Of a stretch of DNA of 64,000 nucleotides, positions 13,577 through 64,000 are shown in pieces; the stretch's first letter is position 1, and each line of letters opens with the position of its first letter. The notes below the pieces were generated by a model. That model ran no database searches. It had not been told where the DNA came from and was given only the letters and a program-made list of their open reading frames with translations. This stretch comes from Thermomicrobiales bacterium (GTDB taxonomy: Bacteria; Chloroflexota; Chloroflexia; Thermomicrobiales; UBA6265), in contig DASTFJ010000250.1 of the NCBI GenBank assembly GCA_035708745.1, positions 76,987-140,986 on the forward strand. The letters run 5' to 3'. Position numbers and translations under genes: made by a program.

Positions 13577-13649
13577 GCGCCCGTAGCTCAGTGGATAGAG
13601 CGCTTGCCTCCGGAGCAAGAGGTCGCGTGTTCGAGTCACGCCGGGCGTA
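13577..13649 (+). tRNA. tRNA-Arg (anticodon CCG)
   Basis: Hand-folded cloverleaf: acceptor GCGCCCG/CGGGCGU (G1-U72 wobble), D arm GCUC-AGUGGAUA-GAGC, anticodon arm CUUGC-CUCCGGA-GCAAG, T arm GCGUG-UUCGAGU-CACGC. No encoded CCA. Confidence 0.9.
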
Positions 13650-13667
13650 CCCCTAAAGCCCCAGTGT

Positions 13668-14040: not shown

Positions 14041-14223
14041 TCCGCAATACGCCTTTTGGGTGACCGCGCGCATCGATCTCCGCGACATACTGGATACAGC
14101 CAGGAACGGCCAAGTGCCAAGCGGGGCACACGCAGTTCGAGGCCCGGGTTCGACAGCATGCTGTGGCGCCCGCTGATCGACACGTCGACTCTAAGGTGGA
14201 AACATCTGGATGGAGACCACACC

Positions 14224-20765: not shown

Positions 20766-20920
20766 ATCGTGCCCCAGACGAGAGTAGGGAAACGGTCTGT
20801 ACCGTTCGGACCCGGGAGACGTGCGGAACGAACACTTCAAACAGGTCGGACCGATTTACGACGACGCCCTCACCACCCAGGTGGTGCTGGATCTATTCCG
20901 ACGTGGCGTCGGTGCTAGCG

Positions 20921-32628: not shown

Positions 32629-32711
32629 GACCCGTTCCTCCTGCGCATAGCATCGGAACCCACGAAGCAATGCAGACACGACTTGGTGCGCTTGGCAGCG
32701 AGGAGTTCAAG

Positions 32712-33974: not shown

Positions 33975-33990
33975 GCGGAAGGGAAGCACG

Positions 33991-34494
33991 ATGCGTGGAT
34001 GGAGCAGTCTCTTCGCAATCCTTATAGGAATCGCGATCGTGGCGTTGATCGTGACCAATAACCGCGTGGACGGCGAAACCGTCGCTCCGCAGGCAGGTAA
34101 CACAACTGCTGGGTTGGCCGCCGGCGCGTTTCAGGCCGCCATAGGAGTCCTCTCGCCGGCGACATCTCTTCAACTGATGATCGACGGCGGAACGCTCCCC
34201 GAGGCGGCGGTGGCGCCGTTGACCGATGCTGCCGACCAATACCAACAGGCGCTCTCACTGCCTCCCGCGGAGGCAGAAGTCCTGCTCCAGCAGTCGCTTG
34301 CCAATCTTGACGAGGCGCAATCCATCGTCAGCGCTGCGGCAGAGGACGCCTCGAATCAGGTCAGTCAGGAAACATTGAAACGAAGTGCGGCCGCCATCGG
34401 GGCAATCGGGGACAGAGTCGAGTCTGACTTGCAGCTCATTCAGCAAACCGGCAGCCCGGTGCCATCGGTCGTCGTTGAGGGAGAAGAGAAATGA
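33991..34494 (+). CDS. Membrane-anchored hypothetical protein inside the arc operon
   Basis: One N-terminal TM helix followed by an Ala/Gln-rich helical region. ATGA overlap with the next gene. Confidence 0.55.
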   Translation: MRGWSSLFAILIGIAIVALIVTNNRVDGETVAPQAGNTTAGLAAGAFQAAIGVLSPATSLQLMIDGGTLPEAAVAPLTDAADQYQQALSLPPAEAEVLLQQSLANLDEAQSIVSAAAEDASNQVSQETLKRSAAAIGAIGDRVESDLQLIQQTGSPVPSVVVEGEEK

Positions 34495-36008: not shown

Positions 36009-36065
36009 GTTTATTGTCGAGACGTTTAGGTACGGCGGTCACCGCCGTCGGAAGGGAACCTCACT

Positions 36066-37067
36066 ATGAAATTCGACTTTTCCGGTCGCGACTTGCTCGA
36101 TGTCGGGCAGCTCAGCAAAGAGGAGTTCGTGGCCTTGCTGGACCTCGCGGCCGAACTCAAAGCGGCGAAAAAAGCCGGGAATGAATATGAGTACCTTGCC
36201 AAAAAGGAGATCGTGCTGATCTTCGAGAAGACCTCGACTCGGACGCGCTGCGCGTTCGAGGTCGCCGCATACGACCAGGGCGCTCACGTGACCTATCTCG
36301 GGCCTGATGGTTCACAGATCGGTCACAAGGAGTCTATGAAGGACACAGCACGGGTGCTCGGACGCATGTATGACGCGATCGAATATCGCGGCTTCTCGCA
36401 AGAGATGGTCGAAACGCTGGCGGAGTTTTCGGGCGTACCGGTCTACAACGGCTTGACCGACGAATTCCACCCCACGCAAATGTTTGCTGACGTGCTCACC
36501 ATGCGCGAGCACAGCAACAAGCCATTGGAGCAGATCGCATTTGCATTTCTTGGGGACGCCCGCAACAACATGGGCAACTCCTTGCTCGAATCAGGCGCCA
36601 AGCTGGGGATGGACGTACGCATTGTCGCGCCGAAACACCTGTGGCCGCACGACGACCTGGTCGAGAAATGCCAGACCTGGGCCAAAGCAAGCGGCGCCCG
36701 GGTGACTCTCACTGATGATATCGACGAAGGCGTCAAAGGTGTCGACTTCGTGCACACCGATGTGTGGGTCTCGATGGGCGAGCCGATGGATGTATGGGGC
36801 GAGCGTATCGACCTTCTGCGACCCTATCAGGTCAATGCGGATGTGCTCAAACGAACCGGTAATCCCGACGTCAAGTTCATGCATTGCCTGCCTGCCTTCC
36901 ATAACAACGAAACCAAGGTCGGCAAAGAAATCGAAGCGAAGTACGGCATCGTCGGCCTGGAGGTGACCGATGACGTCTTCGAATCGCCCCGATCGATCGT
37001 TTTCGATCAGGCAGAGAACCGCATGCACACGATCAAGGCCATCCTGGTCGCGACGCTTGCCGCCTAG
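36066..37067 (+). CDS. arcB: Ornithine carbamoyltransferase
   Basis: STRTR, HPTQ and HCLP motifs. Confidence 0.92.
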
Positions 37068-37100
37068 GAGTTATCCGAAAGTACGCGCAAGAGAGCAGAC

Positions 37101-38630
37101 ATGTCCGACGATCCGGTCCGTGCTGAATCTGAAAAGCCGGTCACTGCGCCATCGCTGGTCGAGGCGTTGATCCCGGTATGTCTGCTCATTGTTCTTCTCG
37201 CCCTCTCGGTCTATCTGTATGGGCTGGATTCGAGCGGCGGTCCCATACAGGTCAGCCTTTTTACGACATCACTTTTCGCGGCGATGCTCGCCGCACGGCG
37301 TGGCGTGGTGTTCGACAAGCTACGGATCGCAGTGATCGAAGGAATCTCAGCCGGATTGAGCGCGATTTTCATCCTCCTGGCAGTAGGAGCTCTCCTTGGC
37401 ATCTGGAATATGGGGGGCACCATCGCGACGGTGATCTATTACGGGCTCGATCTCCTGAAGCCGAGCTACTTCTACTTCGCGGTCAGTATCGTCTGCGCGG
37501 TTACCGGTCTCGTGACCGGGAGTTCGTGGACGACCGCTGGTACCCTCGGCGTGGCATTCGTCGGAATCAGCAAAGTACTGGGAATGGATCCCGCGATTAC
37601 GGCAGGTGCCGCGATCTCGGGCGCCTATATGGGCGACAAAATGTGTCCACTTTCTGAAACGACCGTATTAGTGCCCAGCATTACTGGAGCAAAATTGTCC
37701 GCGCATATTCGCGCGATGATGTGGACCGTGCTCCCCTCCTTTGCCATTGCCGCCGCGCTCTTCCTGGCGCTCAGCTTGCGCGCCAATCCTGCAACGACTG
37801 CTCTCGACACTTCGCAGGCTAAAGCAGCTCTCGACTCGACGTTCAACATCGGGCCAATCACGCTCTTGCCGATCGTCATCCTGATCGTGCTCAGCGTCCT
37901 CCGATATCCACCGTTCATGGCGATTTTCCTGACCGCACTCGCATCCGGTGTGCTTGCCTGCTTCACACAGAAAGGTGTCGTGGATGCCTTTGTGAATGAC
38001 CCCAACCTCGGTATCATTCTGACTTCGATCAAGGCAATTATTTCGGCAGCCGGTACCGGGTTCGCGCTCGACACAGGCAATCCCTCTATCGACACGCTCT
38101 TCAGCGGGGGTGGCATGTCCAGCATGCTCACTACCCTCTGGCTCATCATCGGTGCGCTGACATTCGGCGCGGTTATGGAGCGCGCCGGCTACCTGAACGC
38201 GCTTGTTACTCCGCTGTTGGATCATGCGACATCCGGCGGACGCTTGACCCTTGCCGTAGCCGGAAGTGCGATCGGCCTGAACATTCTCGCCGGTGACCAG
38301 TACGTAGCAGACGTGATTCCGGCGCGCACCTTCAAGGATGAGTTCCGCCGCCGCGGCTACCGTCCGGAAACGCTCTCCCGCATTGTCGAAGACAACGGTA
38401 CGGTGACCTCCGTGCTTATACCGTGGAACACCTGTGGCGCGTATCACGCAGCCGTATTGGGTGTCGCCACCTTCGATTACCTGCCTTATTGCTTTTTCAA
38501 TCTCGTCAATCCACTCCTCTCCATCCTTTACGGATTTCTCGGGTTCCGTATGGAGAAGTTCAAGAATGGCGAGCTCATCGGCGATGTTGTCCCTGATACC
38601 AGTGCCATAGCCGGAGGAGATGTTTCATGA
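37101..38630 (+). CDS. NhaC-family Na+/H+ antiporter-type transporter
   Basis: 509-aa polytopic protein with NhaC-like sequence. Confidence 0.85.
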   Translation: MSDDPVRAESEKPVTAPSLVEALIPVCLLIVLLALSVYLYGLDSSGGPIQVSLFTTSLFAAMLAARRGVVFDKLRIAVIEGISAGLSAIFILLAVGALLGIWNMGGTIATVIYYGLDLLKPSYFYFAVSIVCAVTGLVTGSSWTTAGTLGVAFVGISKVLGMDPAITAGAAISGAYMGDKMCPLSETTVLVPSITGAKLSAHIRAMMWTVLPSFAIAAALFLALSLRANPATTALDTSQAKAALDSTFNIGPITLLPIVILIVLSVLRYPPFMAIFLTALASGVLACFTQKGVVDAFVNDPNLGIILTSIKAIISAAGTGFALDTGNPSIDTLFSGGGMSSMLTTLWLIIGALTFGAVMERAGYLNALVTPLLDHATSGGRLTLAVAGSAIGLNILAGDQYVADVIPARTFKDEFRRRGYRPETLSRIVEDNGTVTSVLIPWNTCGAYHAAVLGVATFDYLPYCFFNLVNPLLSILYGFLGFRMEKFKNGELIGDVVPDTSAIAGGDVS

Positions 38631-41404
38631 GTAGCGCAGCCCCAGCTCGGGATGAGCATTGGTACAAAGATTCCGCTGCGTCGGTCTGTAAAGAGCTGGG
38701 CGTAACTCCCGACCGAGGATTGAGCCCAGACGACGCCGCCAAGCGACAGAGCGAATACGGCCCGAACAAGCTGGCGGAGCAACCGCCCGAGCCGACCTGG
38801 AAAGCATTTCTTAGGCAGTATCGCGACCTGATGCAACTCGTACTTATCGGCGTGGCAATCATCAGCATCGTCGCGCTGGACGATTTCGGCACCGGCATAC
38901 TCATCTTTGGTCTGACGGTCTTCAATGCGGTTCTGGGCGTGAACCAGGAAGGCAAGGCAGCCGAAAGCGTCGCCGCTCTTCGCAAGATGTTGGTGATGAA
39001 AGCCAAAGTGCGCAGGAGTGGCGAGATCGTGGAAATGCCAGCCGAGGAGCTGGTGCCGGGCGATGTCATCTCATTCGAGGCGGGCGACAAGGTGCCCGCT
39101 GACGGCCGTCTGATCACCGCTGCTTCGCTCCAGATCGAGGAGGCCGGGCTGACCGGCGAGAGCGCACCGGTCGACAAGGACACCGCCGCCATTCCGGCCG
39201 AGAGTGTGCCGCTGGCTGACCGAATCAACATGGCGTTCATGAACACCACGGTCACCCGTGGGCGTGGCGAGATGGTGGTGACCGGTACCGGTATGAATAC
39301 GGAGATGGGGCAGATCTCCGGAATGCTGAGCGGGGTCAAGCAGGAAAAGACGCCACTCACCAAGCAGCTCGATCAGTTGACCATTGCCATCACGATCGCA
39401 GCAGCAGCGGCCCTGGTGTTCATTGTTGCGATTGGCCTGTACCGGGAGCAGTCCGCGCAGCAGATGTTCCTGCTCGGAATCAGCCTTGCCATTTCTGCCA
39501 TTCCGACCGGTATGCCGGCGGTCGTCACCACCCTCTTGTCCATGGGCACGCAACAGCTGGCAGAGAAGGGGGCAATCGTCAAACGGCTCCGCTCGGTCGA
39601 AACCCTTGGGGCCACCTCGGCGATTTGTTCCGACAAGACCGGTACCCTGACGTTGAACCAGATGACCGCGCGACAGTTGGTCATTCCGGGCCGCAAGTAC
39701 GAAATCGACGGTGAGGGATACTCAACGAACGGGCGGATTTTGCGAGTAGCGGGTGAGGGGGAGCCGAACTTCGAGGAAATCCTGATGCCGATGGCGCTCG
39801 CCTGCGATGCGGTCGTGAACGATGGCGAGATCGTTGGCGATCCCACCGAAGCTGCGCTCGTCGTCCTGGCGGCGAAAGGCGGCATCGACGTCGGCGGCAC
39901 ACGTCGCGAATATCCACGAATTGCTGAGGTGCCATTCGATTCAGCGTACAAGTTCATGGCCACGTTTCACGATATGACCGGCAAAGATGGTGAACCGGTC
40001 GTGCAGTGCTACGTCAAGGGCGCGCCCGACGTGATCCTGTCCCGGTCGACCACAGCGCGTCTGGCGGATGGAAAGCTCGAGCCGTTATCGGGTTATCAAC
40101 ACACTGTTCTCGCCGAAAACGACCGGCTGGCCAGTGAAGGCCTGCGCGTGATGGCAGTCGCCGCGCGGGAGATTCCCAAGAAATCCTTCGATCCGGATGG
40201 CGACCTCATGAGCTGGGTGCAAGATCTGCAAATGCTGGCGCTTGTTGGCATCGTCGACCCACCCCGTAAAGAGGCCAGGGACGCGATTGCCCTCTGCAAA
40301 GACGCCGGGATCCGCATTCGCATGATCACCGGCGACCACGCAACTACCGCAGCGGCGATTGCCAAACAGTTGGGCATCCAAGGCGAAGCCATTACTGGCG
40401 CAGAATTCGCCGCAATGAGCGACGAGGAGCTATCGAGCAGGTTGGCAGACATTGGGGTCGTTGCGCGCGTCGCGCCCGAGGACAAGGTCCGCCTGGTGGA
40501 CATGCTGAAAAAACAGAATAACGTCGTCGCCATGACCGGTGACGGAGTCAACGACGCGCCGGCATTGAAGCGCGCCGATATTGGTGTTGCCATGGGAATC
40601 ACCGGCACCGAGGTCACCAAGGAAGCCGCGGAGATGATTCTTACCGATGATAACTTCGCGACGATCGTAAAGGCGGTCGAAGGTGGGCGCGGTCTCTACG
40701 ACAACTTAATGAAGTATGTGCGCTTCCAGGTTGGGGTGCTTGTTGCCTTTATCGCGCTCTTCGTCTTGGCCGGCATCTTCGATATTGCAGACGGGATTCC
40801 CCTAAATCCCCTGCAGGTTCTCTGGATCAATTTCGCCATCGACGTTCCCATCGCCATCGGTCTCGGGTTCGATGCAGCTACCCCCGGTTTGATGAGCCGG
40901 TTGCCGCGGCGGGGCGATGCTTCGGTCTTGCCGCGATCGCTCGCGATTCGCCTCATCTCGGCCGGGCTCATCATGGCGATCACCGTTCTGGCGGTCGTCG
41001 CTTACGGCGAAGACCACTACAACCTCGCGGTTGCATTGACGATGGGCGTTACGACGCTATCGCTCTGCCACGTGGTGGCAGCGATCACCACGCGGGACTC
41101 GGAACGAAGCGCATTGTCGATGAACACCTTCGTTAATCGACGGTTCACGTATCTCACCATCCTGGTTCTCGCCTTGACCGTGCTCTCGACCGAGCTGGGA
41201 ATCCTCCAGCGAATTCTCGACACAGTGTCGATGACGCGCGACCAGTGGGGTATCTGCCTGATAGCCACTGGCATCCTTCTCGCGATCTACGAGGTAGCAA
41301 AGTTGATTCTGGGCCGCACCGGTTGGCTGAGCGTGTCGCCCGCGGCGCCGGTGATGGACCAGCCGGCAGCGTCGGTTGTCACTGGAGAAGTTGTCCCTGC
41401 CTGA
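38627..41404 (+). CDS. P-type (P2-like) cation-transporting ATPase
   Basis: [24 protein letters not shown] motifs and a cation-ATPase N-terminal domain. ATGA overlap with the NhaC stop. Confidence 0.9.
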
Positions 41405-41451
41405 CACGGTCACTGCTTACCTCAGCGAGCGGTAAGCCCAGGAGGCTCCAC

Positions 41452-42363
41452 ATGCGAATTGTCATCGCACTTGGGGGAAATGCATTGCTCAAGCGTGGGC
41501 AGGCAATGTCCCAGGAAAACCAGCAAGCCAATGTGGAAACGGCCGCGCGGGCGATTGCCCCACTGGTCGCTGAACACGAAGTTGTTATCACACATGGGAA
41601 TGGCCCCCAGGTTGGACTGCTCTCGCTCCAGTCGCATGCATATGAACGGGTAGATCCTTATTCGCTCGATGTGCTGGGAGCCGAGACCGAGGGAATGATC
41701 GGGTACATGCTCGAAAGGGAGCTAGGAAATCTGCTGCCCGCCGCGAAACCGCTCGCAACCATCCTGACCATGATCGAAGTCGACCCGAACGATCCCGCTT
41801 TTCGTGATCCGACCAAATTCGTCGGTCCCATTTATGAAAAAGCACAAGCAAACCAGATTGCCACCGAAAAAGGATGGGTGATGAAGCCGGATGGCGATCA
41901 CTGGCGACGGGTTGTTCCCTCTCCAGCTCCGCGCAGGGTCTTCGAGATCCGTCCGATACGGTGGCTTCTGGAAAAGGGGGTATTGGTCATCTGTGCCGGT
42001 GGCGGTGGAATTCCAACGGCCTACACGCCGGGTCGCGAACGCGATCTCGAAGGTATCGAGGCCGTTATCGACAAGGACTTCGCCAGTGAGCTCCTTGCCC
42101 GGGATCTCGATGCCGACCTCTTCATTATGGCGACCGATGTCGATGGGGTCTATCGCGACTGGGGTACCCCTACCCAGATTCGAATCGATGAGATCCGAAT
42201 TTCCGGTCTCGAGACAAGCGATTTTCCAGCCGGGTCTATGGGTCCAAAAGTCGAGGCGGCCGCCCAGTTCGTTCGCCGAGCCGGCAAAGTCGCCGCCATC
42301 GGATCGCTCGATGACATTCAGGGAATCGTGATGGGCACGAAGGGAACCCGCTTTGTCGCGTAA
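41452..42363 (+). CDS. arcC: Carbamate kinase
   Basis: [13 protein letters not shown]...[11 protein letters not shown] motif. GGAGG lies upstream. Confidence 0.9.
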
Positions 42364-52540: not shown

Positions 52541-52791
52541 GCTAATCGCTTCACCGACGTCATGCATTCGGACGAGCAGACGACCACGTGTCGAAATCAG
52601 CCGGCCGCTGCACTTGCTTCACCGCCCGGTGCCACAAAGATCGGATAAATCCCTCCTTTGGGTGATGGGCACGCCCCGTGGCGCCGTGACATCGTAGGAG
52701 CGAGCAATTCATCCTACGTCGCAGCCAGGAAGCATTGCTTTCTGCAATAAGAAGTGGTGGTTTGCTGTCCACACGGGTTAGGAGGCAAAAG

Positions 52792-53310
52792 ATGGCATTG
52801 ATGTTGGCATTGATCTACGACACCCCGGATACCGCCGATCGCGCTTTTACCGTGGTCGAGTCGCTCGAATCAGCCCGCTACGTCACCATTCTCGATCGAG
52901 CGCTCTTGACCAAAGAAAAGAACGGTTCAGTCGAGCTGGAAAAAGAAGAGCATCCGGTCAGACACGGCGCAACTGCGGGCGCAGTTCTCGGTGGGATGCT
53001 AGGTCTCATATTCTTGGCACCGGCGGCGGGGGCTGCGGCAGGGGCCGCCGTTGGTGCGGTTGTTGGCCGCAACGCTGACAGTGGGCATCGTGAGTTCAAG
53101 TCGTTTGTAAATAACGTGAAGACCGAAATTCCGAAAGGTGGGAGCGCGATCGTCCTGCTGGGAGATACCGACGCGCCAGATCGGGTGATTCACGACCTCG
53201 GAAGTTTCGGAGGTCGGCTCCTGAGCTACGACCTTTCCGATGACCAGCTTGCTGCACTGCAACAGGAGGTCGATACGGTGGCCAAGCAATCCGGGCACCG
53301 AGAAGCCTGA
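52792..53310 (+). CDS. DUF1269-family membrane protein (paralog 4)
   Basis: AGGAGG lies upstream. Glycine zipper GATAGAVLGGMLGLIFLAPAAGAAAGAAVGAVVG. Confidence 0.8.
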   Translation: MALMLALIYDTPDTADRAFTVVESLESARYVTILDRALLTKEKNGSVELEKEEHPVRHGATAGAVLGGMLGLIFLAPAAGAAAGAAVGAVVGRNADSGHREFKSFVNNVKTEIPKGGSAIVLLGDTDAPDRVIHDLGSFGGRLLSYDLSDDQLAALQQEVDTVAKQSGHREA

Positions 53311-53404: not shown

Positions 53405-53866
53405 ATGACCGACGCTGAACTTACCCAACAACTTGCTGGCATCGATGCAATGTTTGTCCAGGTCGCCTCAGCGACCGAAGCATCCGAGGGACAGCTTATT
53501 CTCAAGGGCGTTGGGGAGTCGACCCTGTTCTTCAGTGACCGCCCGCAGCGAGTGGTCGGTCATATCCATACATCTCAGCTGGTCTCAGTCTGGGACGATG
53601 GGGATAACAGCTTCAAAAGCGACCCGCCAAACGCGGTGCTCTCGTTCGTTGGACGGGGGGACGCTGTCCCGAACGATATCGTCCTTGTGATCAATGATCC
53701 GGTTCTGTCCGGATCGGACCTCAGCTATGCCGTAAGCGTTCTGGACGGAACGCTACCGGTCAGCACGGGCGCTTGCACGCTCTTCATCGATCCGTTTGGC
53801 CGGCCGCTCTCGCCCGTTTCGCTGGCGGGCATGAATCGCCGAGATCGTCGCCGCGACCGACGCTGA
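53405..53866 (+). CDS. Hypothetical protein with an Arg-rich tail
   Basis: 153 aa starting MTDAELTQQ. Its composition looks coding, but I recognise no family. Confidence 0.55.
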   Translation: MTDAELTQQLAGIDAMFVQVASATEASEGQLILKGVGESTLFFSDRPQRVVGHIHTSQLVSVWDDGDNSFKSDPPNAVLSFVGRGDAVPNDIVLVINDPVLSGSDLSYAVSVLDGTLPVSTGACTLFIDPFGRPLSPVSLAGMNRRDRRRDRR

Positions 53867-54096
53867 GGCTGACCCGCGACGAAGCGAGCAAAACGATCGA
53901 CTACTTCTTTGTGGCGATAGATACGAGCCAGCGCAGGGCAAAATTTGAGTGCGTATCGACTGTCGGATCCGCTGAGGTCAACGAAAAGCTCGCGGGCTTT
54001 AGCGCTGAGTTGGCAGAGTGCGTGAGTGGATGGCGGCTACCTGCACAGGTGATTGGTAAGGGCCGGGCCGCGCCGGCCAGCATGTTTACGCGGTTT

Positions 54097-54160
54097 TTGG
54101 TCGGTGAGCAAAACTCGCCTCCTATGCGAACCGGCGTAGGTTCCATTCCTTCCCGGGATA
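54097..54160 (+). pseudogene. tRNA-Arg(CCU)-like relic (D-loop to 3' end, degenerate)
   Basis: Anticodon arm UCGC-CUCCUAU-GCGA, T arm GUAGG-UUCCAUU-CCUUC (4 of 5 pairs, non-canonical loop), 3' acceptor CCGGGAU-A. There is no matching 5' acceptor strand. Confidence 0.5.
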
Positions 54161-54274
54161 CCCGTCTCAACATCCGACCAGCGGTGGCTCGAAAACCGGG
54201 CTCTTGACCTGCTACCTCTCGACCAATGTGACATTTGTCGCATCCGGGAGCTATTGCATGTGTGCACGGTGTGT

Positions 54275-54520
54275 TCACGCGCCACATTGAGAACGCCTGG
54301 TTTGGCCCAATAACGCATCCATCTCCACGGCCGCTTCGGCCTGGCAGCCGGCCAGTGTGTGGGCGTAGAGATCGTTCGTAGTCGTGGTAAGCGGAATCTC
54401 CTGCAGAATCTGCCAGCTTCCTTGCGTATGGCGTAGATGAGGAAGGCGCTGGTAGATCGAACTGCGCGAGCGGCCCGGAAAGGTTGACCATGACGGACGG
54501 ATCGACCCCCGAAGCTCCAG
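54275..54520 (-). pseudogene. Second tyrosine recombinase relic (C-terminal part)
   Basis: The minus-strand frame reads HLRHTQGSWQILQEIPLTTTTNDLYAHTLAG (HxLRHT...TT..xYAH pattern) and stops at 54275-54277. The region 54223-54284 is homologous to 13683-13745. Confidence 0.55.
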
Positions 54521-54668
54521 TCCTCCGACTGACTCGTTCTGAATCAGCGACGAACCGCTGGATTACTACCCGCCATCTTGGCAACCCCTCAGCGACGACG
54601 ACGGCCGCGTCCTCGTCAGCGAGGTTACGTTGGTGTGATCATTCCATCCTGCCAATGTAAGGAATGAC

Positions 54669-56945
54669 ATGACCGGGTTATCACTCTCCGACCAACAGTA
54701 TTCTGCCTTCGCCGATCGCGATCGCTTCACTGCGGAAGACATCGAGGTACTCCTCTACGGTCTCGACCGCACACCTCGGCTGGTCGCCGCTGAATTTCGG
54801 CCGCCGCACAAGATACTCCTCTTTCAGCGAACTGATACTGGTCAGACCGTCGCCATCGAACAGATCTTCAGGCCGTGGTTGATTGCGAGCGACGCAGAAG
54901 CGCTGCGGAACCTTCGCCCGGCGCCGGAGAGCCGGTCCTTGCGCGGCGCCGGGACGCATTCGCTGGCGACGCTGTTCGAGTTCGATTCGTGGGAGCAATT
55001 CCGTCGCGCGTACGATCTCCTGCCACCGCAATCGAGCGGCGCCTATCAGGTCAATTCGCCGGTCAGCCAGTTTTTGATGCGAACAGGTATTACCCTCTTC
55101 AAAGGGATGCGATTCGAGGATCTTCGCCGCCTTCAACTTGATATCGAAACCTTGAGCCTGAATCCGCGGGACGACGACGGTGCGATCGTGATGATTGCCC
55201 TGAAGCAGGGGGCTCACGAGGAGTTGCTCTTTCTCGAGACCAACGAGCGGGACCTCCTTCTCCGATTCTCGGAGGCGGTTCAGCGGCTCGATCCCGACGT
55301 GATCGAGGGCCACAATGTCTTCAATTTCGATTTTCCCTATCTGATCGAACGGGCACGGCGGTGGCAGGCTCCGCTGCGCCTGGGCCGCGACGGATCGCCG
55401 CCACTGGTCAACGAGCAGCAACGGTTTCGCGCTGGACCGGTGTCGTTGCCCTATACGCAGGTTCACGTGCATGGTCGCCACATCGTTGACACCTATCAAC
55501 AGCTCCAACGTTTCGACACCGCCGGACGGCTTTCGAGCTATGCGCTGAAATCCGCAATTCGGTCGCTCGGACTCGAGCGCGAAGCGCGCGAGTTCGTCGC
55601 CGGAGATGAGATCGCTACACTCTGGAGAAATGGCGAACGCGATCGAGAACGCCTGGGCCGCTACGCCCTGGACGATGTGAGAGATGTCGATCTCCTGGCA
55701 AGGATCACTGTTCCCACCGAGTTCTATCAAACCCAAATTCTTCCAATGACCTTTCAGCGAACCACGGTCACGGGCACGGGCCGCAAAATCGACGATCTCA
55801 TGGTTCGCGCCTATCTCGCAGCGGAGCACGCGCTTCCAGAGCCCGGCCGTTCCCGTCCTTACCCTGGCGGATTTACCGAGCTCGTGCGCACCGGCGTGTT
55901 TGGACCGATCGTCAAGGCCGATGTCGAAAGTCTCTACCCATCGATCATGCTGCACGATGACATCGCAGCAACCAGCGACACCCTGGGCGCTTTTCCGGTA
56001 CTGCTGCGTGAGCTGACTAAGCGGCGCATCGACGCGAAGCAGCGGGCTCGCCAAACAGATGGAGAAGAACACGCGCTATGGGATGGCCTCCAGGGCAGCT
56101 TCAAAGTGCTGATCAACTCGTTCTACGGCTACTTGGGATACGGCAGGGGATTGTTCAATGATTTCGATGCCGCCGAGCGGGTGACGCTCGAAGGGCAGCG
56201 ATTGATCCGAAACGTGGTATCAGAGTTGGATCTCCACGGAGCAAAGCCGATAGAGGTCGATACCGACGGCGTCTATTTCACTCCACCCGATGGGGTCACG
56301 ACGGAGGAGGACGAAGAAGCCTTCATCGCCACGATCGGCTCATTGGCGTTGCCCGAAGGCGTGCGATTGGCTCATGACGGTCGTTATAAGAAGATGCTTT
56401 CCCTCAAGCTCAAAACGTACGCATTGCTCGATTACTCCGGATCGCTCACCCTCAAAGGGAGCTCGTTACGCAGCCGCCGCATGGAGCGCTGCTTTCTGCG
56501 CTTCATTCAGGATGCAGCGCGCGACTTCATGCTCGATCGGCGCGAGGACGTCCGCGACCGATACTTCGAGCTGGCGGAGGCAATCCAGCAAAAGACCGTC
56601 GATCCGCGTGAGATCAGCCAATGGACGATGGTGAATCGCAGCTCCCTCGAGAAACAGCCGCGGCTCAAGGCGCTGCTCGACGCCAATCCGGGTCGCTGGC
56701 GTTTCGGTGAGCGCATCGAAGTCTTTGAGCGTGTAGATGGTTCGCTGGGATTCCTGGAGGACTATGCGCACGACGAGAATACGCGCGACCTCCTCCGCCG
56801 CTTGTCCGATACGGCCGCTCGCTTCAAGGAGGCGTTCGCGACGACGGCAGAATTCGAGGCCTTTTTCCCAAAGATCACACCGATGACGCGGTTGAGCGAA
56901 GCACGAGAAATCAGGCCAGTCCATCAGCTCACGCTCTTCGGTTAA
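54669..56945 (+). CDS. polB: Family-B DNA polymerase, Pol II-like, all catalytic motifs intact
   Basis: ExoI LDIET (residues 157-161), ExoII GHNVFNFDFPYL, ExoIII YALDDV, motif A DVESLYPSIM, motif B KVLINSFYGYLG, motif C EVDTDGVYF, KxY motif KLKTYAL. 758 aa. Confidence 0.9.
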   Translation: MTGLSLSDQQYSAFADRDRFTAEDIEVLLYGLDRTPRLVAAEFRPPHKILLFQRTDTGQTVAIEQIFRPWLIASDAEALRNLRPAPESRSLRGAGTHSLATLFEFDSWEQFRRAYDLLPPQSSGAYQVNSPVSQFLMRTGITLFKGMRFEDLRRLQLDIETLSLNPRDDDGAIVMIALKQGAHEELLFLETNERDLLLRFSEAVQRLDPDVIEGHNVFNFDFPYLIERARRWQAPLRLGRDGSPPLVNEQQRFRAGPVSLPYTQVHVHGRHIVDTYQQLQRFDTAGRLSSYALKSAIRSLGLEREAREFVAGDEIATLWRNGERDRERLGRYALDDVRDVDLLARITVPTEFYQTQILPMTFQRTTVTGTGRKIDDLMVRAYLAAEHALPEPGRSRPYPGGFTELVRTGVFGPIVKADVESLYPSIMLHDDIAATSDTLGAFPVLLRELTKRRIDAKQRARQTDGEEHALWDGLQGSFKVLINSFYGYLGYGRGLFNDFDAAERVTLEGQRLIRNVVSELDLHGAKPIEVDTDGVYFTPPDGVTTEEDEEAFIATIGSLALPEGVRLAHDGRYKKMLSLKLKTYALLDYSGSLTLKGSSLRSRRMERCFLRFIQDAARDFMLDRREDVRDRYFELAEAIQQKTVDPREISQWTMVNRSSLEKQPRLKALLDANPGRWRFGERIEVFERVDGSLGFLEDYAHDENTRDLLRRLSDTAARFKEAFATTAEFEAFFPKITPMTRLSEAREIRPVHQLTLFG

Positions 56946-56980
56946 TGGTCACTATCGGTGCTTTTCAGCCATTATCGGCG

Positions 56981-57038
56981 GTAGACGAGCGCTTGCGACC
57001 GAAGCAAGCGGTCGCGTGTTAGAGTCACGCTGGGCGCA
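56981..57038 (+). pseudogene. tRNA-Arg(CCG)-like relic lacking the 5' acceptor strand and D arm (candidate att repeat)
   Basis: 56987-57038 aligns with tRNA positions 13598-13649 without gaps, with 45 of 52 positions identical by hand alignment. The anticodon loop reads GACCGAA. Confidence 0.65.
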
Positions 57039-57126
57039 TTATCTCCGCAAGATCCATAACCAACGGAAATACCCAGCATCAGCTCAATTCGTGCGAGCCT
57101 CGCCGTTCTCGGTACGCGGCAAGGAT

Positions 57127-59085
57127 TTACGTCATGCGCGGCGCGCTCGGTCCACCCAACACCCGAGCGGTACCGGCAGGCGAATCTGCGGCTCGGCGAG
57201 AATGTTCCAATGCGTCGAAACCGAAAAGCACAGCCATACGGGCGGGTAGGCACAGTGCGATGTCCGAACCATCGCTTCGAAGGTAGCGCTCGATTTCGCC
57301 CGGCTCTGGCTTGGGATTCGCCGTGGACATCATGACGCTCCACTGGTTTGCTTCTACCGTGCATGCCAGCTCCAGCTCGCTTGACGGCATCGTGAGCTCA
57401 GCGCCAAAGTTCGCAATCAGGACACGATGTGAGCCATCGCGCCACCGGTGCAGCATCAGCGCCGCACCACCCAGCGGCTGCGCGTGGCTGAGCGATCGGT
57501 TCTGCACCGCGAACACGGGATCCCCGTGTCGAAGCTGGAGCAATCGCTGGTACAGCGCGTACGTGGCTCCGTGCTCATCGCGTTCTGACAGCCGAAGCAT
57601 AGAGGAGCGAAAGGTCTCCTCTGCCTGCGGATCGGGAATATGTCGCTGAGCGCGCTCGTCCGAAAACGCGCGGAACCCGGCGAACTCCTTCCGCCGGCCC
57701 TCGGTGACAAGCCGGCCCAATTCCTCATGATGATCGGTGAAAAAGCGGAACGGCGTCGATGCGGCGAATTCCTGGCCCATGAAGATCAGCGGCGTTTCTG
57801 GCGCCAGCAGAAGGACGCTCGATGCCACCAGAAACCGGTCGCGGTCGATCTCGTGATGGATCCGCTCGCCCAACGGGCGGTTGCCGATCTGGTCGTGATT
57901 CTGCAGGTTGAAGACGAACGCGCTCGCCGGTTCATCGGAGATCGGTGTCCCGCGCTTCCGCTTCCAGAAATCAGAAACGTCGCCCTGGTAGAAGAACCCA
58001 TCGTTCAGCGCCTTGGCAAGATCCTCGACCGAGCCCGAAAAGTCGACGTAGTAGCCCTCCCAGGCATTCGAAAGCAAGACCCACATCTCGTGGTGGAAAT
58101 CATCGGCCCAGACGGCATCGATTCCATAGCCGCCATCGGCCACCGGTGTGATCGTCCTCACTTCGTTGCGCGCATCCTCGGCAATGATCACCACATCCCG
58201 GTCGACCGCTGCGCGCACCCGCTGTTGCAGCTCGGCCAGGAGATGTGGTTCGCTGTCGTCGCGAATGGTATCGACGGCATCGAGTCGCAATCCGTCGAAG
58301 TGATAGTCCCGCACCCATTGGATCGCGTTGTCGATCGCAAAATCCCGTACGAACTGGGCGTTAGGACCGTCGTAGTTGAGCGCATCGCCCCACGGGGTGT
58401 GATGCCGGTCCGTGAAATAGTCCGCGCTGTAGCGCCGCAGGTAATTCCCATCCGGACCCAGGTGGTTATAGACCACATCGAGCAGGACACCCAATCCAAG
58501 CTGGTGCGCCCGATCGACGAGTCGCTGCAGATCGTTCGGATGGCCATAGGCGCGAGAGGGGGCATAAAGTGCGACCCCGTCGTATCCCCAATTCCAGCGG
58601 CCCGGAAAGTCAGCTACCGGCATCAACTCGATGACGCGCACTCCGAGCCGCACGATCGCTTCGAGCTGCCTGCTAAGCGCATCGAACGTACCTTCGGATG
58701 TATAGGCTCCCACATGAAGTTCGTAGATCGACAGATTCTCATTGCGCAGCCCCGGCCACGCATCGTCGGTCCAATCGAACGCGCCCAGATCGATCACCTC
58801 GGAAGGGCCATGCACCCCGAAGGGTTGAAAACGCGAGCGCGGATCCGGCGTACCGGGTGTCCCGTCTACACTGAATTGGTAGCGCGTGCCTGCGGTGGCA
58901 TCGCGAACCAGCGTGGAGTAGATGCCGCGCTCATTGCGTTCCATGGGATATCTGGTCACATCGTCGCCAGCTTCGACAAGCAGATCCATTCGCTCTGCGG
59001 CGGGCGCCCAAATGCCGAACTGGATGCCGTCAGACGTAATGTTGGCTCCAAGGGGTTGGTCTGCCTGATCTGAGGAAGTGCTCAT
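57127..59085 (-). CDS. treZ: Malto-oligosyltrehalose trehalohydrolase
   Basis: GH13 motifs DVVYNH, GLRLDAVD and IAEDA. ATG 59085 chosen (MSTSSDQ), 4 nt after the treY stop. Confidence 0.9.
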   Translation of the reverse strand: MSTSSDQADQPLGANITSDGIQFGIWAPAAERMDLLVEAGDDVTRYPMERNERGIYSTLVRDATAGTRYQFSVDGTPGTPDPRSRFQPFGVHGPSEVIDLGAFDWTDDAWPGLRNENLSIYELHVGAYTSEGTFDALSRQLEAIVRLGVRVIELMPVADFPGRWNWGYDGVALYAPSRAYGHPNDLQRLVDRAHQLGLGVLLDVVYNHLGPDGNYLRRYSADYFTDRHHTPWGDALNYDGPNAQFVRDFAIDNAIQWVRDYHFDGLRLDAVDTIRDDSEPHLLAELQQRVRAAVDRDVVIIAEDARNEVRTITPVADGGYGIDAVWADDFHHEMWVLLSNAWEGYYVDFSGSVEDLAKALNDGFFYQGDVSDFWKRKRGTPISDEPASAFVFNLQNHDQIGNRPLGERIHHEIDRDRFLVASSVLLLAPETPLIFMGQEFAASTPFRFFTDHHEELGRLVTEGRRKEFAGFRAFSDERAQRHIPDPQAEETFRSSMLRLSERDEHGATYALYQRLLQLRHGDPVFAVQNRSLSHAQPLGGAALMLHRWRDGSHRVLIANFGAELTMPSSELELACTVEANQWSVMMSTANPKPEPGEIERYLRSDGSDIALCLPARMAVLFGFDALEHSRRAADSPAGTARVLGGPSAPRMT

Positions 59086-59089
59086 GAAC

Positions 59090-62000
59090 CTAACGAATTC
59101 CCTTCGGAGATCGACTGCCGACAGCCCGTTTCGGGGCGTTTCCAACGAGGGCAACTGGAAAGTTTTCGAGCAATGATTCGACGGCGATGGCGCGCTCTCC
59201 TTCGTGCACATCCGGCCGGAGCCGAGTCCCGGTAAATTCATTGACAGAGCGTTCGTCGGCTAGCGATTCGTCCAGCACGAGATACGTACCGCGCCAGATC
59301 TCGCCGATCGGTGCCTGGTCGGCGCGGTCGATGAGCTCACCGATCAGCCGCGGAACCACCACGATCGCCCACTGGTCACCCCACGATCGACGAAAGGCGA
59401 CCAGGTTTCCAGATCGTGGTCCACGGACCTCCAGCGAAACATAGTCGCCGCGCGCATAGAGGTCCGCGTGCGCCGTTCGATGCGCGAGCGCGCGCGCAGT
59501 GAGGTAGAGCTTGATTCGCCCACTTGGGAGATCGGCCAGTAATTCCCCGGCCAGCTCGAGGCTCGGAGCAGTTACCAGAAGCTCATCGAGAAGGGCATCT
59601 CGGTATTCGAAGTCGACCGGGCGCCGGTTGTCAGGATCGACCAGGCTCAGGTCCCAAAGTTCCGTTCCCTGATAGATGTCCGGCACCCCTGGCGCTGTCA
59701 GCTTGAGCAATTGCTGCGAAAGGGATGAAAACGCGCCGATCTGCATGAATTGCGGCATGAACCCTCGGAAGTCGTCCAGAAAGGTGTTATCCGAACCGGG
59801 GTCGAGCAGCGCGGCCACGAAGTCGGATAACGCGGCTTCATACCTCTCGTCGGGATTGATCCAGCTCGTGTGCGTCTGCCCTTCGCGGGCGGCTTTGATC
59901 ATGTATTTGGTCACGCGCTCCCGCAACGACGCATCGGCAGCCCGATCGTCGAACGGCCAGATACCGACCAGTGTCTGATAGAAGTGAAATTCGTCATTGC
60001 GGTCTGGAGCAGCCCGGCCCTGTATCCGTGATTTGTGCCGCCGGTTCAAGCGGGACCAGCGGTTGACTGCGGCTCGCCATTCGCGCGGCAGCTCCGTCAA
60101 TGCGCTGATGCGGGTACGGGCGTCTTCACTACGCTTGGTGTCGTGCGTCGACGAGGCCAGCAGCGCATTCGGCCACCGCTGCGAACGCGCGACGGCATCG
60201 CGATGAAACTCCTCCACCGACGTGCCGAATGCCGCCGGATCGCTCCCCACTTCGTTGAGCGAGAGGAGCCGGTTGTAGCGGTAAAAAGCCGTGTCCTCCA
60301 CCCCCTTGGCCATGACCGGACCGGTCAGCTGTTGGAATTTCATGACGAACCGGCTGATCGCCGCGCCTTCTTCGTCCGATGCGTCCTCCGGGATTCGAAG
60401 TTGCAGCACTTCGCGAATGAACTCGAAGACGCCGGGATCGGACCCGGGATTGCGCCGCAGCGCCTGATCGACCGCCTGATCGATCGATCGCCGCTCCCGT
60501 GGATCGACCGGCTCGCCGCCAGCGGTGAGGTACGTCCGATAGATCGGAAAACAGGCGATGATCTCGCGCAGCGCATCCCGCAAATTGTTCAGCGTGTAAT
60601 CTCGCGTGCGCCGGTTTTGCTCGGTCAGCCGGTCGAGCGCGCGGGCAAGGACATTGACCTCGCTCACCAGCGCCACCTGCATGATTCGCATCTTCATCGC
60701 ATAGATGAGGTCGTCGACGGAGGTGCGGTCACCCGCGATTCGGGCGTAGATCTCATCGAAGATGCGCCGGTTGCCCGGCTGGACGAATAAACCGGTTACG
60801 ATACGAGCGAACTCGTAGCCAACCGTTCCCGCCACCGGCCAGTCGGCTGGCAGCTGCTCCCCCGCTTCGAGAATCTTTTCGACCACCAGGTAAAGCGGAT
60901 CGATAACGAGCCGGTTCTGCCAGAGCTCGTCCAGCTCTGCCTGCCATTCTTTCCAGGTCGATTCGTCCAGCGGCTTCGAGCGCCGCGACTCGATTGTCGT
61001 GCGAACCTGGGCGAGAAAAGCCGCCTTCTGCAGCGCATGGAGGTATCCGGCCGGATTCCAGAGCCCATCCAGGTGATCGATCCGCACGCCGGTCACCGAA
61101 CCCTCCCCGATTAATGAAAGGAGCAACTGGCTGGTCGTCTCGAAAACGATCGGCACTTCCTGTCGGATTGCGGCCAGTTCGTTGATAGCGAAAAAGCGCC
61201 GGTAGTTGATTTCCTCCGCGGCCACGCGCCAAAACGCCAGCCGGTACGATTGCGCGTCCAGCAATGCCTCGAGCTCGTCGTAGGAAGCCGCGTCACCGGC
61301 GAAGCCATTGACCCGCTCCAGCACCCGGGCGAGGGCATCCCGCATCGGTGCTTCCGCGGCGATCAGGACAGCGAGCCGGTGCTTGCCCAAGAGCTGTTCG
61401 CGCCGCCGATCCGCCAGCTTCTCCGGATCGGTTTCCTCGTTCGGCACGAGCCGCTCGAAGGCGGCGATGATGCTTTCCAACTCCAGCAGGGCGATATCGT
61501 TCGGCTGATACGCATCCTGAACGGCGACGAGCATTCGCCGCAGGAGAAGTGGATACGTCGGCGGGGCGATCGGAAACGGCGTCTCGTAGTAGTCGACTCG
61601 AAAGGCTCCGTCACCGAACGCGAGGCGGAGTTCGCCGCACTCGAGCACTCTGCCGAATTGATCTCCGAGGATCGGCACCAGCACCTGGTCCCGCAGCTCG
61701 CGCTTGAGCGGCAACCAATCGATATCGAAATAGGAGGCGAATTCTGACGCCCGGCCATTCTCGAGCACGTCCTGCCACCAGGGGTTCGCCCCTCCGCCGA
61801 TGCCCATATGATTGGGCACGAAATCCAGGACCAAACTCATTCCATGCGCATCGAGCGCAGCAACCAGCGCATCGAACCCCGCGCGTCCGCCCAGTTCCTC
61901 GTCGATTCGATTGAAATCGACGACGTCATAGCCGTGCATGCTGCCGCTGGTCGACGCCCAAACCGGAGAGGCGTAGAGATGAGAAACCCCGAGCCGCGCC

Positions 62001-62140
62001 AGATACGGCACGATCTCGCGCGCGGCGGCGAACGGAAACTCCGCGTGAAGCTGCAGCCGGTATGTTGCGCGCGGCGCGGGTGACGGGGTTTGCAGGATAC
62101 GTGTCGCAAGCGCGCGATCACGCCGAGTCAGTCCAGCCAC
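59090..62140 (-). CDS. treY: Malto-oligosyltrehalose synthase
   Basis: ATYRLQLHAEFPF...LGVSHLYASPV and LVLDFVPNHMG motifs. GTG start. Confidence 0.9.
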   Translation of the reverse strand: MAGLTRRDRALATRILQTPSPAPRATYRLQLHAEFPFAAAREIVPYLARLGVSHLYASPVWASTSGSMHGYDVVDFNRIDEELGGRAGFDALVAALDAHGMSLVLDFVPNHMGIGGGANPWWQDVLENGRASEFASYFDIDWLPLKRELRDQVLVPILGDQFGRVLECGELRLAFGDGAFRVDYYETPFPIAPPTYPLLLRRMLVAVQDAYQPNDIALLELESIIAAFERLVPNEETDPEKLADRRREQLLGKHRLAVLIAAEAPMRDALARVLERVNGFAGDAASYDELEALLDAQSYRLAFWRVAAEEINYRRFFAINELAAIRQEVPIVFETTSQLLLSLIGEGSVTGVRIDHLDGLWNPAGYLHALQKAAFLAQVRTTIESRRSKPLDESTWKEWQAELDELWQNRLVIDPLYLVVEKILEAGEQLPADWPVAGTVGYEFARIVTGLFVQPGNRRIFDEIYARIAGDRTSVDDLIYAMKMRIMQVALVSEVNVLARALDRLTEQNRRTRDYTLNNLRDALREIIACFPIYRTYLTAGGEPVDPRERRSIDQAVDQALRRNPGSDPGVFEFIREVLQLRIPEDASDEEGAAISRFVMKFQQLTGPVMAKGVEDTAFYRYNRLLSLNEVGSDPAAFGTSVEEFHRDAVARSQRWPNALLASSTHDTKRSEDARTRISALTELPREWRAAVNRWSRLNRRHKSRIQGRAAPDRNDEFHFYQTLVGIWPFDDRAADASLRERVTKYMIKAAREGQTHTSWINPDERYEAALSDFVAALLDPGSDNTFLDDFRGFMPQFMQIGAFSSLSQQLLKLTAPGVPDIYQGTELWDLSLVDPDNRRPVDFEYRDALLDELLVTAPSLELAGELLADLPSGRIKLYLTARALAHRTAHADLYARGDYVSLEVRGPRSGNLVAFRRSWGDQWAIVVVPRLIGELIDRADQAPIGEIWRGTYLVLDESLADERSVNEFTGTRLRPDVHEGERAIAVESLLENFPVALVGNAPKRAVGSRSPKGIR

Positions 62141-62371
62141 GTGTCGTTATTCGATCCGAATGGAAGCGCGGAGCGCTCGAAAAACGATGATCGACAAGAA
62201 CCGGCGTACTATCGGAGTACAAGCTGACCGGCAAGCGACGAGCGCTTGCCCGCACAGACGGTTCCTAACGTCTGGACAACCTTAGTTCAGGCGTTGACCG
62301 CTGACTGTTTTCCGAGAGGTCCGGGCTGGCATCCTGTCCGTTACCTCCGTCGTACCCCTGGAAGCGTCTCG

Positions 62372-64000
62372 ATGCCGAACAAAACCGATTCTCGTCAGGA
62401 CACAGTGCTTCCCGGCGTTCCGTACCCACTGGGCGCCACCCTCGACGAATCCGGCACCAACTTTGCGCTCTTCAGCGAACACGCCACCGCCGTGACCCTT
62501 TGCCTCTTCGATGACGACGGCTCGGAGCGCCAATTTCCGCTCACCGAGGTAACCGCTCACGTCTGGCACGGGTACCTCCCAGGGGTCGCTCCTGGACAGC
62601 TCTATGGTTACCGCGTGGATGGTCCTTATGCGCCCGATGAGGGGCATCGATTCAATGCGGCCAAGCTGCTGGTCGATCCCTATGCCAAGGCGTTGTCAGG
62701 TGAGGTGAATTGGGACGCTCCGGTCTTTGGCTACGCCGTCACCGGGAAGCCCGACGCCGATTTGACCCCCGACGAGGAGGACAGCTCCTGGGGTATGCCG
62801 AAATCGCTGGTCGTCGATCCCACGTTCGATTGGGGCGACACGCGGCCACCCGCCACGCCACTGCACCGCTCGGTTATCTATGAGATGCACGTCAAAGGAT
62901 TTACCGAGCTCCATCCCGAAGTCGATCCGGAGATGCGAGGCACCTATGCGGGTGTGGCCCACCCGGCTGCTATCGCCCACTTGCAGCAACTGGGGGTGAC
63001 GGCGGTCGAGCTCCTCCCGGTTCATGCTTTTCTGACCGGCAAGCACCTGGTCGATAAGGGGCTCACGAACTATTGGGGTTACAACACTCTCAACTTCTTC
63101 GCTCCGGAAGCTCGGTACAGCGGCAGCGGGGACCGCGGGGATCAGGTTCGCGAATTCAAGGAGATGGTCAAGGCACTGCATCGGGTGGGTATCGAGGTCA
63201 TTCTCGATGTCGTTTACAACCACACCGCCGAGGGAAGCGAGCTCGGTCCGACGCTCTCCTTTCGCGGCATCGACAACGCCGCCTACTATCGTTTGGTCGA
63301 GGACGACCCCCGCTTCTACATGGATTACACCGGCACCGGCAATACGCTCGACGCGCACAATCCGCAGACCCTTCAGCTCATCATGGACTCGCTACGTTAC
63401 TGGGTGCTCGAAATGCACGTCGATGGCTTCCGCTTCGATCTGGCATCCGCGCTGGCCCGCGAGCTCTACGATGTCGACCGGCTCTCGGCTTTTTTCGACA
63501 TCATCCATCAGGATCCGGTAGTGTCTCAGGTCAAGCTCATCGCCGAGCCCTGGGATATCGGCGAAGGCGGTTATCAGGTCGGCCAGTTTCCCGTGTTATG
63601 GGCGGAATGGAATGGCCGCTACCGCGATGCCGTGCGCGGATTCTGGCGCGGCGATGAGCGTCACGCCGCCGAGATCGCCTATCGACTCTCCGGTTCGTCC
63701 GATCTCTACCAGCACGACGGCCGGCGTCCTTACGCCAGCATCAACTTCATCACCGCGCATGACGGGTTCACGCTGGCCGATCTGGTCTCGTACGAGCACA
63801 AGCACAACGAAGCCAACGGCGAGAACAACCGCGACGGTGCGGACGACAACCTCTCGATGAATTTCGGTCATGAGGGACCGACGGACGACCCCGCGATCCG
63901 CTGTTTGCGTGCCCGTCAGCAGCGTACGATGCTGGCCACCCTCCTGCTTTCCCAGGGCGTACCGATGATCACGTCGGGCGATGAAATCGGCCGCACCCAG
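62372..64000 (+). CDS. glgX: Glycogen debranching enzyme GlgX, 3' end outside the window
   Basis: The frame is open from ATG 62372 to the window edge, which is why it is absent from the ORF track. [57 protein letters not shown] and GFRFDLA motifs. Confidence 0.9.

Follow-up and report, generated by a model that had tools for sequence, protein, structure and literature searches.

A family-B DNA polymerase gene amid putative scars of tRNA-Arg-targeting islands in a Thermomicrobiales genome: probably a vertically maintained cellular gene of the G3 group

We have analyzed a stretch of 64,000 nucleotides (nt) from the genome of a Thermomicrobiales bacterium (assembly GCA_035708745.1, contig DASTFJ010000250.1, positions 76,987 to 140,986; hereafter the window) in which an intact gene for a family-B DNA polymerase (polB, 54669-56945, plus strand, 758 aa) lies among remnants resembling tRNA genes and tyrosine integrases. 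The original prediction, made from the letters alone, had described a complete polymerase framed within 2.9 kb by two tRNA-like relics and a dead integrase. It had considered two outcomes, a polymerase retained by the host or an undescribed class of integrative element.

The open reading frame (ORF) is complete, as had been claimed. Its product matches the Pfam families DNA_pol_B_exo1 (PF03104) and DNA_pol_B (PF00136) above their cut-offs (E 5.6e-15 and 1.6e-13, respectively), and every one of the expected motifs could be located. The exonuclease motifs are Exo I (LDIET, residue 155), Exo II (NVFNFDFPY, 216) and Exo III (YALDD, 332), and those of the polymerase domain are A (DVESLYPS, 418), B (KVLINSFYG, 479) and C (IEVDTDG, 528), followed by KTY (582) and KGSSLRSRR (596). 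The Pfam domains, together with Exo I-III and the Pol A, B, C and KxY motifs, place the protein in the nucleic-acid-primed assemblage of family B. At the very C-terminus, residues 753-757 of 758 read QLTLF, a beta-clamp motif. Matches in the PDB spanned archaeal, bacterial and eukaryotic PolBs, the best of them a Thermococcales (archaeal) enzyme (E 1e-44), and similarity to Escherichia coli Pol II was far weaker (E 1e-18). A protein look-up gave no existing record for the window's PolB.

Among the bacterial family-B polymerases, Kazlauskas et al. (2020; PMC7544198) delimited a G3 group, which Timinskas et al. (2026; PMC12926913) treated again. The glutamate of motif C (E-x-DTD) is a synapomorphy of G3, B10 and PolEpsilonN/Pol-epsilon (PMC7544198), G3 polymerases have intact exonuclease and polymerase sites and a beta-clamp-binding motif (PMC12926913), and the viral holders that were named are Salinibacter and Nostoc phages (PMC7544198). 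Judged by its motifs, its clamp motif and its phage relatives, the window's PolB fits this group. The pattern E-x-DTD[GS] was present in all full-length close homologs (114 of 114), and a C-terminal QL[GST]LF was kept in nearly all full-length homologs. When 50,697 phage records were searched by tblastn, good matches were limited to phages of Salinibacter (E 6e-91) and of Nostoc, Anabaena and Dolichospermum (E 3e-39 to 2e-31), the viral distribution described for G3. The three remaining matches, under Salmonella or Escherichia names, were weak and of Pol II type (E 5e-12 to 1e-8), and one of these records is a S. Infantis genome contig annotated as DNA polymerase II. Plasmid matches came from Deinococcus and cyanobacterial megaplasmids. 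G3 is scattered over phyla, and in the same way the homologs found here belong to Chloroflexota, Gemmatimonadota, Armatimonadota and the Planctomycetota-Verrucomicrobiota-Chlamydiota (PVC) bacteria, besides the plasmids mentioned. With the same N-terminal, exonuclease and polymerase architecture, the same Exo and Pol motifs, the Glu two residues before DTD, the clamp motif and the same kinds of phage relatives, we found no substantive difference from the G3 group.

Two other assignments were tried and rejected. The polymerase had been called Pol II-type, and it does share the motifs DxxSLYPS, KxxxNSxYG, DTD and KxY with E. coli Pol II (group G1). It would also resemble this enzyme as an accessory, proofreading and clamp-binding family-B polymerase with a C-terminal QLxLF-type motif. 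However, motif C of E. coli Pol II is of the YGDTDS type and that of the window is EVDTDG, and the PDB and NCBIfam scores speak against orthology, the three NCBIfam equivalogs giving 96.5, 81.2 and 67.3 bits where 570, 1103 and 1435 would be required. A protein-primed or piPolB-type enzyme was rejected as well, the match to PF03175 (DNA_pol_B_2) covering 34 residues only with 14 bits (E 0.024) against a cut-off of 25.8. The KGSSLRSRR motif, which had been taken as unusual, is a trait of the family and not an oddity, as is the Glu of motif C; the Asp of KGxxxxRRD is missing from Pol epsilon as well.

Relatives can be aligned with the window at the nucleotide level from 54633/54634 onwards, and polB is preceded by a conserved segment (54633-54668, plus strand, GTGTGATCATTC...GAGGA) that probably comprises a -10 element and a ribosome-binding site. 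Alignment of upstream regions indicated that this segment of about 36 nt accompanies polB in differing genomic contexts. In most close relatives the motif GTG(T/A)(G/C)ATCATT(C/T), and then GAGGA, were found 36 to 8 nt before the start codon (the comparison covered window 54633-54668 and the loci L002, L003, L004, L006, L009, L010, L025, L087 and L088; L numbers denote loci of relatives throughout). The motif was missing in L007 and L011, and no LexA-type box was evident in the conserved upstream regions. The antisense ORFs within polB (54681-56072 and others) were discarded as genes, being frame -1 shadow ORFs typical of GC-rich genes, and L007 has the same frame. The G+C content at third codon positions (GC3) of polB is 0.70, like that of the backbone.

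The homologs of polB were scanned in one genome per species, giving 77 loci, among which PolB identity to the window was 44-88% within Thermomicrobiales and 37-45% in Gemmatimonadota, Armatimonadota and PVC bacteria. In 20 Thermomicrobiales species (L012, L017, L020, L021, L023, L024, L027, L029, L030, L033, L034, L036, L037, L039, L040, L050, L053, L058, L061 and L082) the end of a ribosomal RNA (rrn) operon is convergent with polB, with genes for tRNA-Met, 5S, 23S, tRNA-Ala, tRNA-Ile and 16S, and the tRNA-Met usually lies 55-250 nt beyond the polB stop codon. Several further polB contigs stop right after the gene, as would happen if assemblies break at rRNA operons. Within the close clade (80-89% identity) a gene of the MR_MLE family precedes polB in seven loci and the neighbours are others in four more, and at least six different contexts were found there. 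In one of these close relatives (L088, 1327-5219) polB stands beside a TCAD9-domain protein and an SMC/AAA-type ATPase, a pair that looks like a defence system.

No Phage_integrase domain occurred in any Pfam-annotated polB context of the relatives, and neither integrases nor attachment-site (att) repeats were found around the gene in the other contexts examined. Compared with 80 polB loci, the window had no neighbours in common within 10 kb, apart from weak matches at the level of paralogs, and its nucleotide homology to relatives around the gene was limited to 54633-56961. Such sharp edges (-36 to +16 relative to the gene) could suggest a mobile cassette. This was rejected: alignment between genes also breaks off among genomes in which MR_MLE and polB are syntenic, and the edges are therefore attributed to intergenic divergence.

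The sole bona fide tRNA gene of the window is a tRNA-Arg(CCG) called by ARAGORN at 13576-13652 (plus strand). Its 3' 50 nt (13598-13647), from the 3' side of the D-stem to the acceptor end, are repeated in direct orientation at 56987-57036 (plus strand; relic 2), with 88% identity over 50 nt (blastn E 3e-13), a score reached by none of 2000 shuffles. The tRNA-Arg(CCG)-like relic announced downstream of polB is thus real. It is a 3' fragment without the 5' part of the tRNA, and ARAGORN made no call there even at 60% thresholds. A tRNA-associated island is likewise bounded by a tRNA on one side and a repeat of that tRNA's 3' part on the other, with relic 2 here as the att-type scar.

Just past the tRNA, on the minus strand, lies integrase stub A (13668-13868), a C-terminal tyrosine-recombinase fragment of 66 aa with the pattern HDLRHT...GH..STT, in which the position of the catalytic Tyr is lost. 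Its translation reads IQIHDLRHT...SGHLRLSTTSDL. The tRNA-Arg and integrase relic reported at 13.6 kb were therefore recovered, the stub matching Phage_integrase with 18.2 bits (E 0.0023, under the cut-off) and having a XerC-like recombinase as top PDB match (E 0.57); what stands next to the tRNA is this stub only, not a functional integrase. The second link between the two loci is a 58-nt block at 54227-54284 (plus strand), 74% identical to 13688-13745, the 3' end and flank of the minus-strand integrase gene. Both copies share a 24-mer bar two degenerate positions, with no matches in shuffles, and no other direct repeat within the 44.6-kb interval is longer than this block and the tRNA repeat.

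Upstream of the block, just as tRNA-Arg(CCG) is at 13.6 kb, lies relic 1 (54094-54162, plus strand), a degenerate tRNA-Arg(CCU)-like sequence whose 3' two-thirds are tRNA-like. Here the evidence was divided. In an ungapped scan it matched 29 of 49 positions of the tRNA 3' end, which ranks third of 128,000 positions (background maximum 26), outscored by tRNA-Arg(CCG) itself and relic 2 only. ARAGORN at 90% thresholds called it tRNA-Arg(cct), one of just four sub-threshold calls in the window, and compared with the real tRNA it has compensatory changes at three stem pairs. On the other hand, ARAGORN made no call at default settings, stringent local alignment to the tRNA did not rise above shuffles, and Rfam returned neither tRNA nor any other RNA over 53500-57500 at E<=10, evidently because truncated tRNA pieces escape its detection. 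On balance relic 1 is a probable tRNA-derived relic. Another sub-threshold ARAGORN call, a tRNA-Arg(ccg) at c[20808-20882], had no likeness to the real tRNA (P 0.67) and was put down to chance.

The putative integrase stub B (54275-54520, minus strand) had been read as a tyrosine-recombinase relic from the resemblance HLRHT...TTTNDLYAH. It gave no Phage_integrase match at E<=10 and no recombinase in the PDB, its Arg-Tyr spacing is some 10 residues short, and it is tied to stub A solely through the adjoining 58-nt block, all of which leaves stub B unproven as an integrase remnant. The claim that the 13.6-kb arrangement is copied near polB holds, then, for relic 2 and the 58-nt block, probably for relic 1, and lacks protein support for stub B. 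The more general one, of a layout like the scars of tRNA-targeting integrative elements, stands, with repeats of the tRNA-Arg and at least one decayed recombinase stub.

Could these flanking remnants be chance resemblances, with polB in ordinary intergenic DNA? The empty Rfam result, the local alignment of relic 1 and the lack of Pfam or PDB support for stub B point that way. However, relic 2 and the 58-nt block lie far beyond chance, which is refuted for both of them, they are the longest direct repeats of the interval, and relic 1 sits where the 13.6-kb locus predicts. Taken for the whole set of remnants, chance is very unlikely; for stub B alone it is possible.

Traces of the same kind were found in other genomes. 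In L007 an orthologous tRNA-Arg(CCG), similar in its 5' leader too, precedes polB by 160 nt. In L009/L083 a 3' tRNA-Arg fragment followed by 33 nt of the flank of the 13.6-kb element lies 9 kb upstream of polB. In this last locus (L083 167-934, the same as L009 and L089) the 48-nt 3' tRNA-Arg fragment comes immediately after a MazE-PIN toxin-antitoxin pair, and the next 33 nt are homologous to window 13653-13685. The homology with the window extends in all over 13604-13685, the flank of stub A, and the junction is a scar of the same island family in another species. The integrase-flank pattern, in the form of the shared 24-mer, had no match in viral contigs, and a scan of metagenomes for the tRNA end plus element flank retrieved one contig of 1.9 kb, matching the L083 junction, and no intact element. 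Directly after the P450 stop codon there are T-loop-like strings, TTCGATCCCGCACCGGCGACCA in L090 (11147-11170) and two TTCGAAC...TGGCC motifs in the window (13440-13500), which either are due to chance or may represent additional short scars of tRNA 3' ends. Besides, a contig from another sample (L091, SRR25158421_713347) is 99.8% identical to window 7041-13621 and ends at 13621, within tRNA-Arg(CCG) and inside its 50-nt repeated att-like part (13598-13647); strains that differ beyond the tRNA could account for this, as could a simply short assembly.

Comparison with L090 shows that the unit to consider is larger than the 2.9-kb frame originally drawn around polB. In L090 the genes for a P450 and TreZ converge on each other across 76 nt that contain no tRNA, and the window is collinear with it over 8082-13360 and 57482-64000. 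Since P450 directly abuts treZ there, the window carries between these two genes an extra, lineage-specific variable segment of 43.7 kb (13380-57126), of which tRNA-Arg(CCG) is the left anchor. The segment starts with tRNA-Arg(CCG), stub A and the first 58-nt block and ends with relic 1, the second block, stub B, polB and relic 2. Its genes include transporters, an arginine deiminase cluster, LuxR/MalT-type regulators, glycosidases, MscS, two DUF1269 genes and polB. No phage, conjugation, replication or intact mobility genes were detected among the Pfam-scanned ORFs of 13380-57126, and its GC content is about 2 points below that of the flanks. The P450 ortholog of L090 is on the same 391-kb contig as the polB of L006, which lies about 185 kb from treZ, beside MR_MLE; in the genome of L003/L084 the distance is about 175 kb. 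Each genome examined has different DNA just beyond the treZ stop codon, the mark of a hot spot.

As regards the contents of the segment, window 32670-42363 codes for arginine deiminase, a DcuC-type carrier, ornithine carbamoyltransferase, a Na+/H+ antiporter, a P-type ATPase and an amino-acid (carbamate) kinase. The DUF1269 (glycine-zipper) paralogs, at 13882-14739 after stub A and at 52735-53310 before relic 1, are weakly alike; their position beside both tRNA/stub loci may be coincidence, or they may be element cargo. Beyond the segment, the treX-treY-treZ cluster for trehalose synthesis (57127-64000) is syntenic in the relatives L084, L085, L086 and L090.

The segment resembles tRNA-associated genomic islands in several ways: the intact tRNA with an opposite-strand integrase at one end and, at the opposite end, a roughly 50-nt repeat of the tRNA 3' part, a second att/integrase stub in the interior as found in tandem arrays, cargo of transport, stress and catabolic genes, a slightly lower GC content and its absence from a relative. 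It differs from them in that the integrases are dead stubs with no other mobility genes, and in that the empty site of the relative has no tRNA.

The silent sites of polB behave differently from those of other genes. Against the proteins of the window, those of one relative genome showed 84% identity for PolB and 70-86% for TreX, TreY and TreZ. The four-fold-site distance between the window and the L006/L090 genome was 0.66 for polB and 1.08-1.95 for five backbone genes of similar G+C content at four-fold sites (GC4), polB being the lowest of the seven gene families compared. The best control is treX, whose nonsynonymous divergence (dN) is nearly the same as that of polB (0.074 vs 0.075) and whose four-fold distance is nevertheless 1.33. 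This cannot be used as proof of island-borne transfer, and we rejected it as such, because polB is likewise compressed, between subclades to about half the silent divergence of MR_MLE, in other genome pairs where it is syntenic with this neighbour; the effect is clade-wide, not locus-specific. In very close pairs polB is instead more diverged than MR_MLE. The pattern of divergence of both genes (window, L006, L003, L009, L011 and others) suggests recombination or exchange of one or both of them. Between the L006 and L003 genomes, the silent distance was about 1-1.2 for treY and treZ and 0.41 for treX.

The explanation that we favour, with a probability of about 0.72, is that polB is a cellular gene which Thermomicrobiales have maintained by vertical descent; it would code for a polymerase of the G3 group and lie amid the scars of tRNA-Arg-targeting islands. 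From the motifs and what is known of the family, the enzyme would carry out primer-dependent synthesis and would proofread, since Exo I-III are intact. It would be tethered to the beta sliding clamp of the host through the C-terminal QLxLF motif, and the conservation of this motif argues for an accessory enzyme of the host replisome instead of the replication module of a self-synthesizing element. Most likely it would serve as an accessory repair, restart or gap-filling polymerase, like E. coli Pol II, with no part in the replication of mobile elements. As to the locus, the presence of tRNA-Arg(CCG) or a fragment of it upstream of polB also in L007 and in L009/L083 suggests an old tRNA-Arg(CCG)-polB neighbourhood that suffered repeated insertion and decay of tyrosine-integrase islands. 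Successive islands would have integrated at a rearrangement-prone locus and left scars that are now all inactive, and polB would have been trapped or juxtaposed by this turnover at the distal edge of the segment, rather than being an element's own replicase.

Several observations weigh against this interpretation. The gene lies inside the outermost tRNA repeat, relic 2 being placed 41 nt after its stop codon. The order of relic 1 and stub B, first tRNA and then integrase, is of the attL type, with relic 2 as attR, and under a simple integration model these two junctions would enclose polB in an element. The empty site of L090 also lacks the tRNA and is not a textbook pre-integration site, which means that its difference from the window may be a rearrangement and not an insertion. 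The low silent divergence of polB could reflect exchange of the gene between lineages. Finally, to our knowledge no G3 polymerase has been characterised biochemically to date.

The alternative that survives best is that polB was cargo. A tRNA-Arg-integrating island made up of relic 1, integrase B, polB and relic 2 would have moved a host-type G3 polB, possibly from another Thermomicrobiales lineage, and then decayed while selection kept the gene. We regard this as possible, if unlikely. Relic 1 and stub B upstream and the 88% tRNA repeat downstream do bracket polB closely, 13380-57126 is missing at the P450-treZ junction of L090, in whose genome polB is about 185 kb off beside MR_MLE, and silent divergence is lowest for this gene. 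The variety of contexts in the close clade, at least six around a constant upstream segment of about 36 nt, agrees with movement too, as does the presence of G3 polB genes in a few phages and on megaplasmids of Deinococcus and cyanobacteria. Against it, the other polB contexts examined have no integrase or att repeats, stub B fails at the protein level, the sharp homology edges reflect intergenic divergence and not a cassette, the low silent divergence is not limited to the window genome, and the GC3 of polB fits the backbone. In addition, genes related to some of the supposed cargo (MFS, DUF6325) are found close to P450 or polB elsewhere, in other genomes, and part of the segment may be rearranged chromosome instead of foreign DNA.

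A broader version of the same idea is more doubtful still. A G3 polB with its short promoter segment might be shuttled between the lineages of the clade as cargo of tRNA-Arg(CCG) islands, the window being a decayed example. This would explain the many contexts of polB, its association with tRNA-Arg in three species and its low silent-site divergence.

Self-synthesizing elements such as pipolins and casposons were the comparison drawn at the outset. Pipolins integrate into tRNA genes, and the polB of the window does lie near a tyrosine-recombinase remnant and tRNA-derived direct repeats. The differences are more numerous. The polymerase belongs to the nucleic-acid-primed assemblage and not to piPolB or protein-primed PolB, and it carries a clamp motif. 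Of recombinases there are dead stubs only, and no recurring unit of recombinase, polB and att was seen in other polB contexts. The Pfam scan of ORFs at 13-59 kb, which covered small ORFs in part, revealed no Cas1, and neither terminal inverted repeats nor meaningful inverted repeats of any kind flank polB, as had been noted at the outset for Cas1 and terminal repeats. In all relatives examined polB is chromosomal, conserved and free of integrases. An undescribed self-synthesizing integrative element, in which a tyrosine recombinase would be combined with a nucleic-acid-primed PolB that replicates it, has in its favour the local layout only (tRNA-like relic, integrase-like stub, polB, tRNA repeat) and is extremely improbable given the conserved host beta-clamp motif, a single-copy chromosomal gene beside the rrn operon or MR_MLE across the order, the sub-threshold DNA_pol_B_2 match (E 0.024), the lack of terminal inverted repeats and of any nearby Cas1, primase, helicase or other replication gene, and the absence of a viral-contig locus with the integrase-flank pattern.

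Of the two outcomes considered at the start, host retention was therefore essentially right, with polB found order-wide in integrase-free chromosomal contexts, and the undescribed element class is abandoned in view of this conserved synteny, the clamp motif and the missing terminal repeats. A vertical family, synteny free of integrases and relics, and relics that fail statistical tests had been named beforehand as evidence against an element. This is largely what we found, as regards the family, the synteny and some of the relics, while relic 2 withstood its tests.

The case illustrates how a PolB gene beside tRNA and integrase relics can mimic a new self-synthesizing element when it is probably a conserved host polymerase of the G3 group, a clean negative. 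The analysis lends sequence-level support to placing the PolBs of Thermomicrobiales, with their clamp motif, in G3. It also yields two by-products, the conserved linkage of polB with the rrn operon in Thermomicrobiales and the 43.7-kb variable segment anchored at tRNA-Arg with its tandem att and integrase scars; we found no mention of the polB-rrn linkage or of the att scars in PMC7544198 or PMC12926913. If it were true that islands shuttle polB, which is unproven, this would offer one way in which G3 polymerases came to be spread so patchily.

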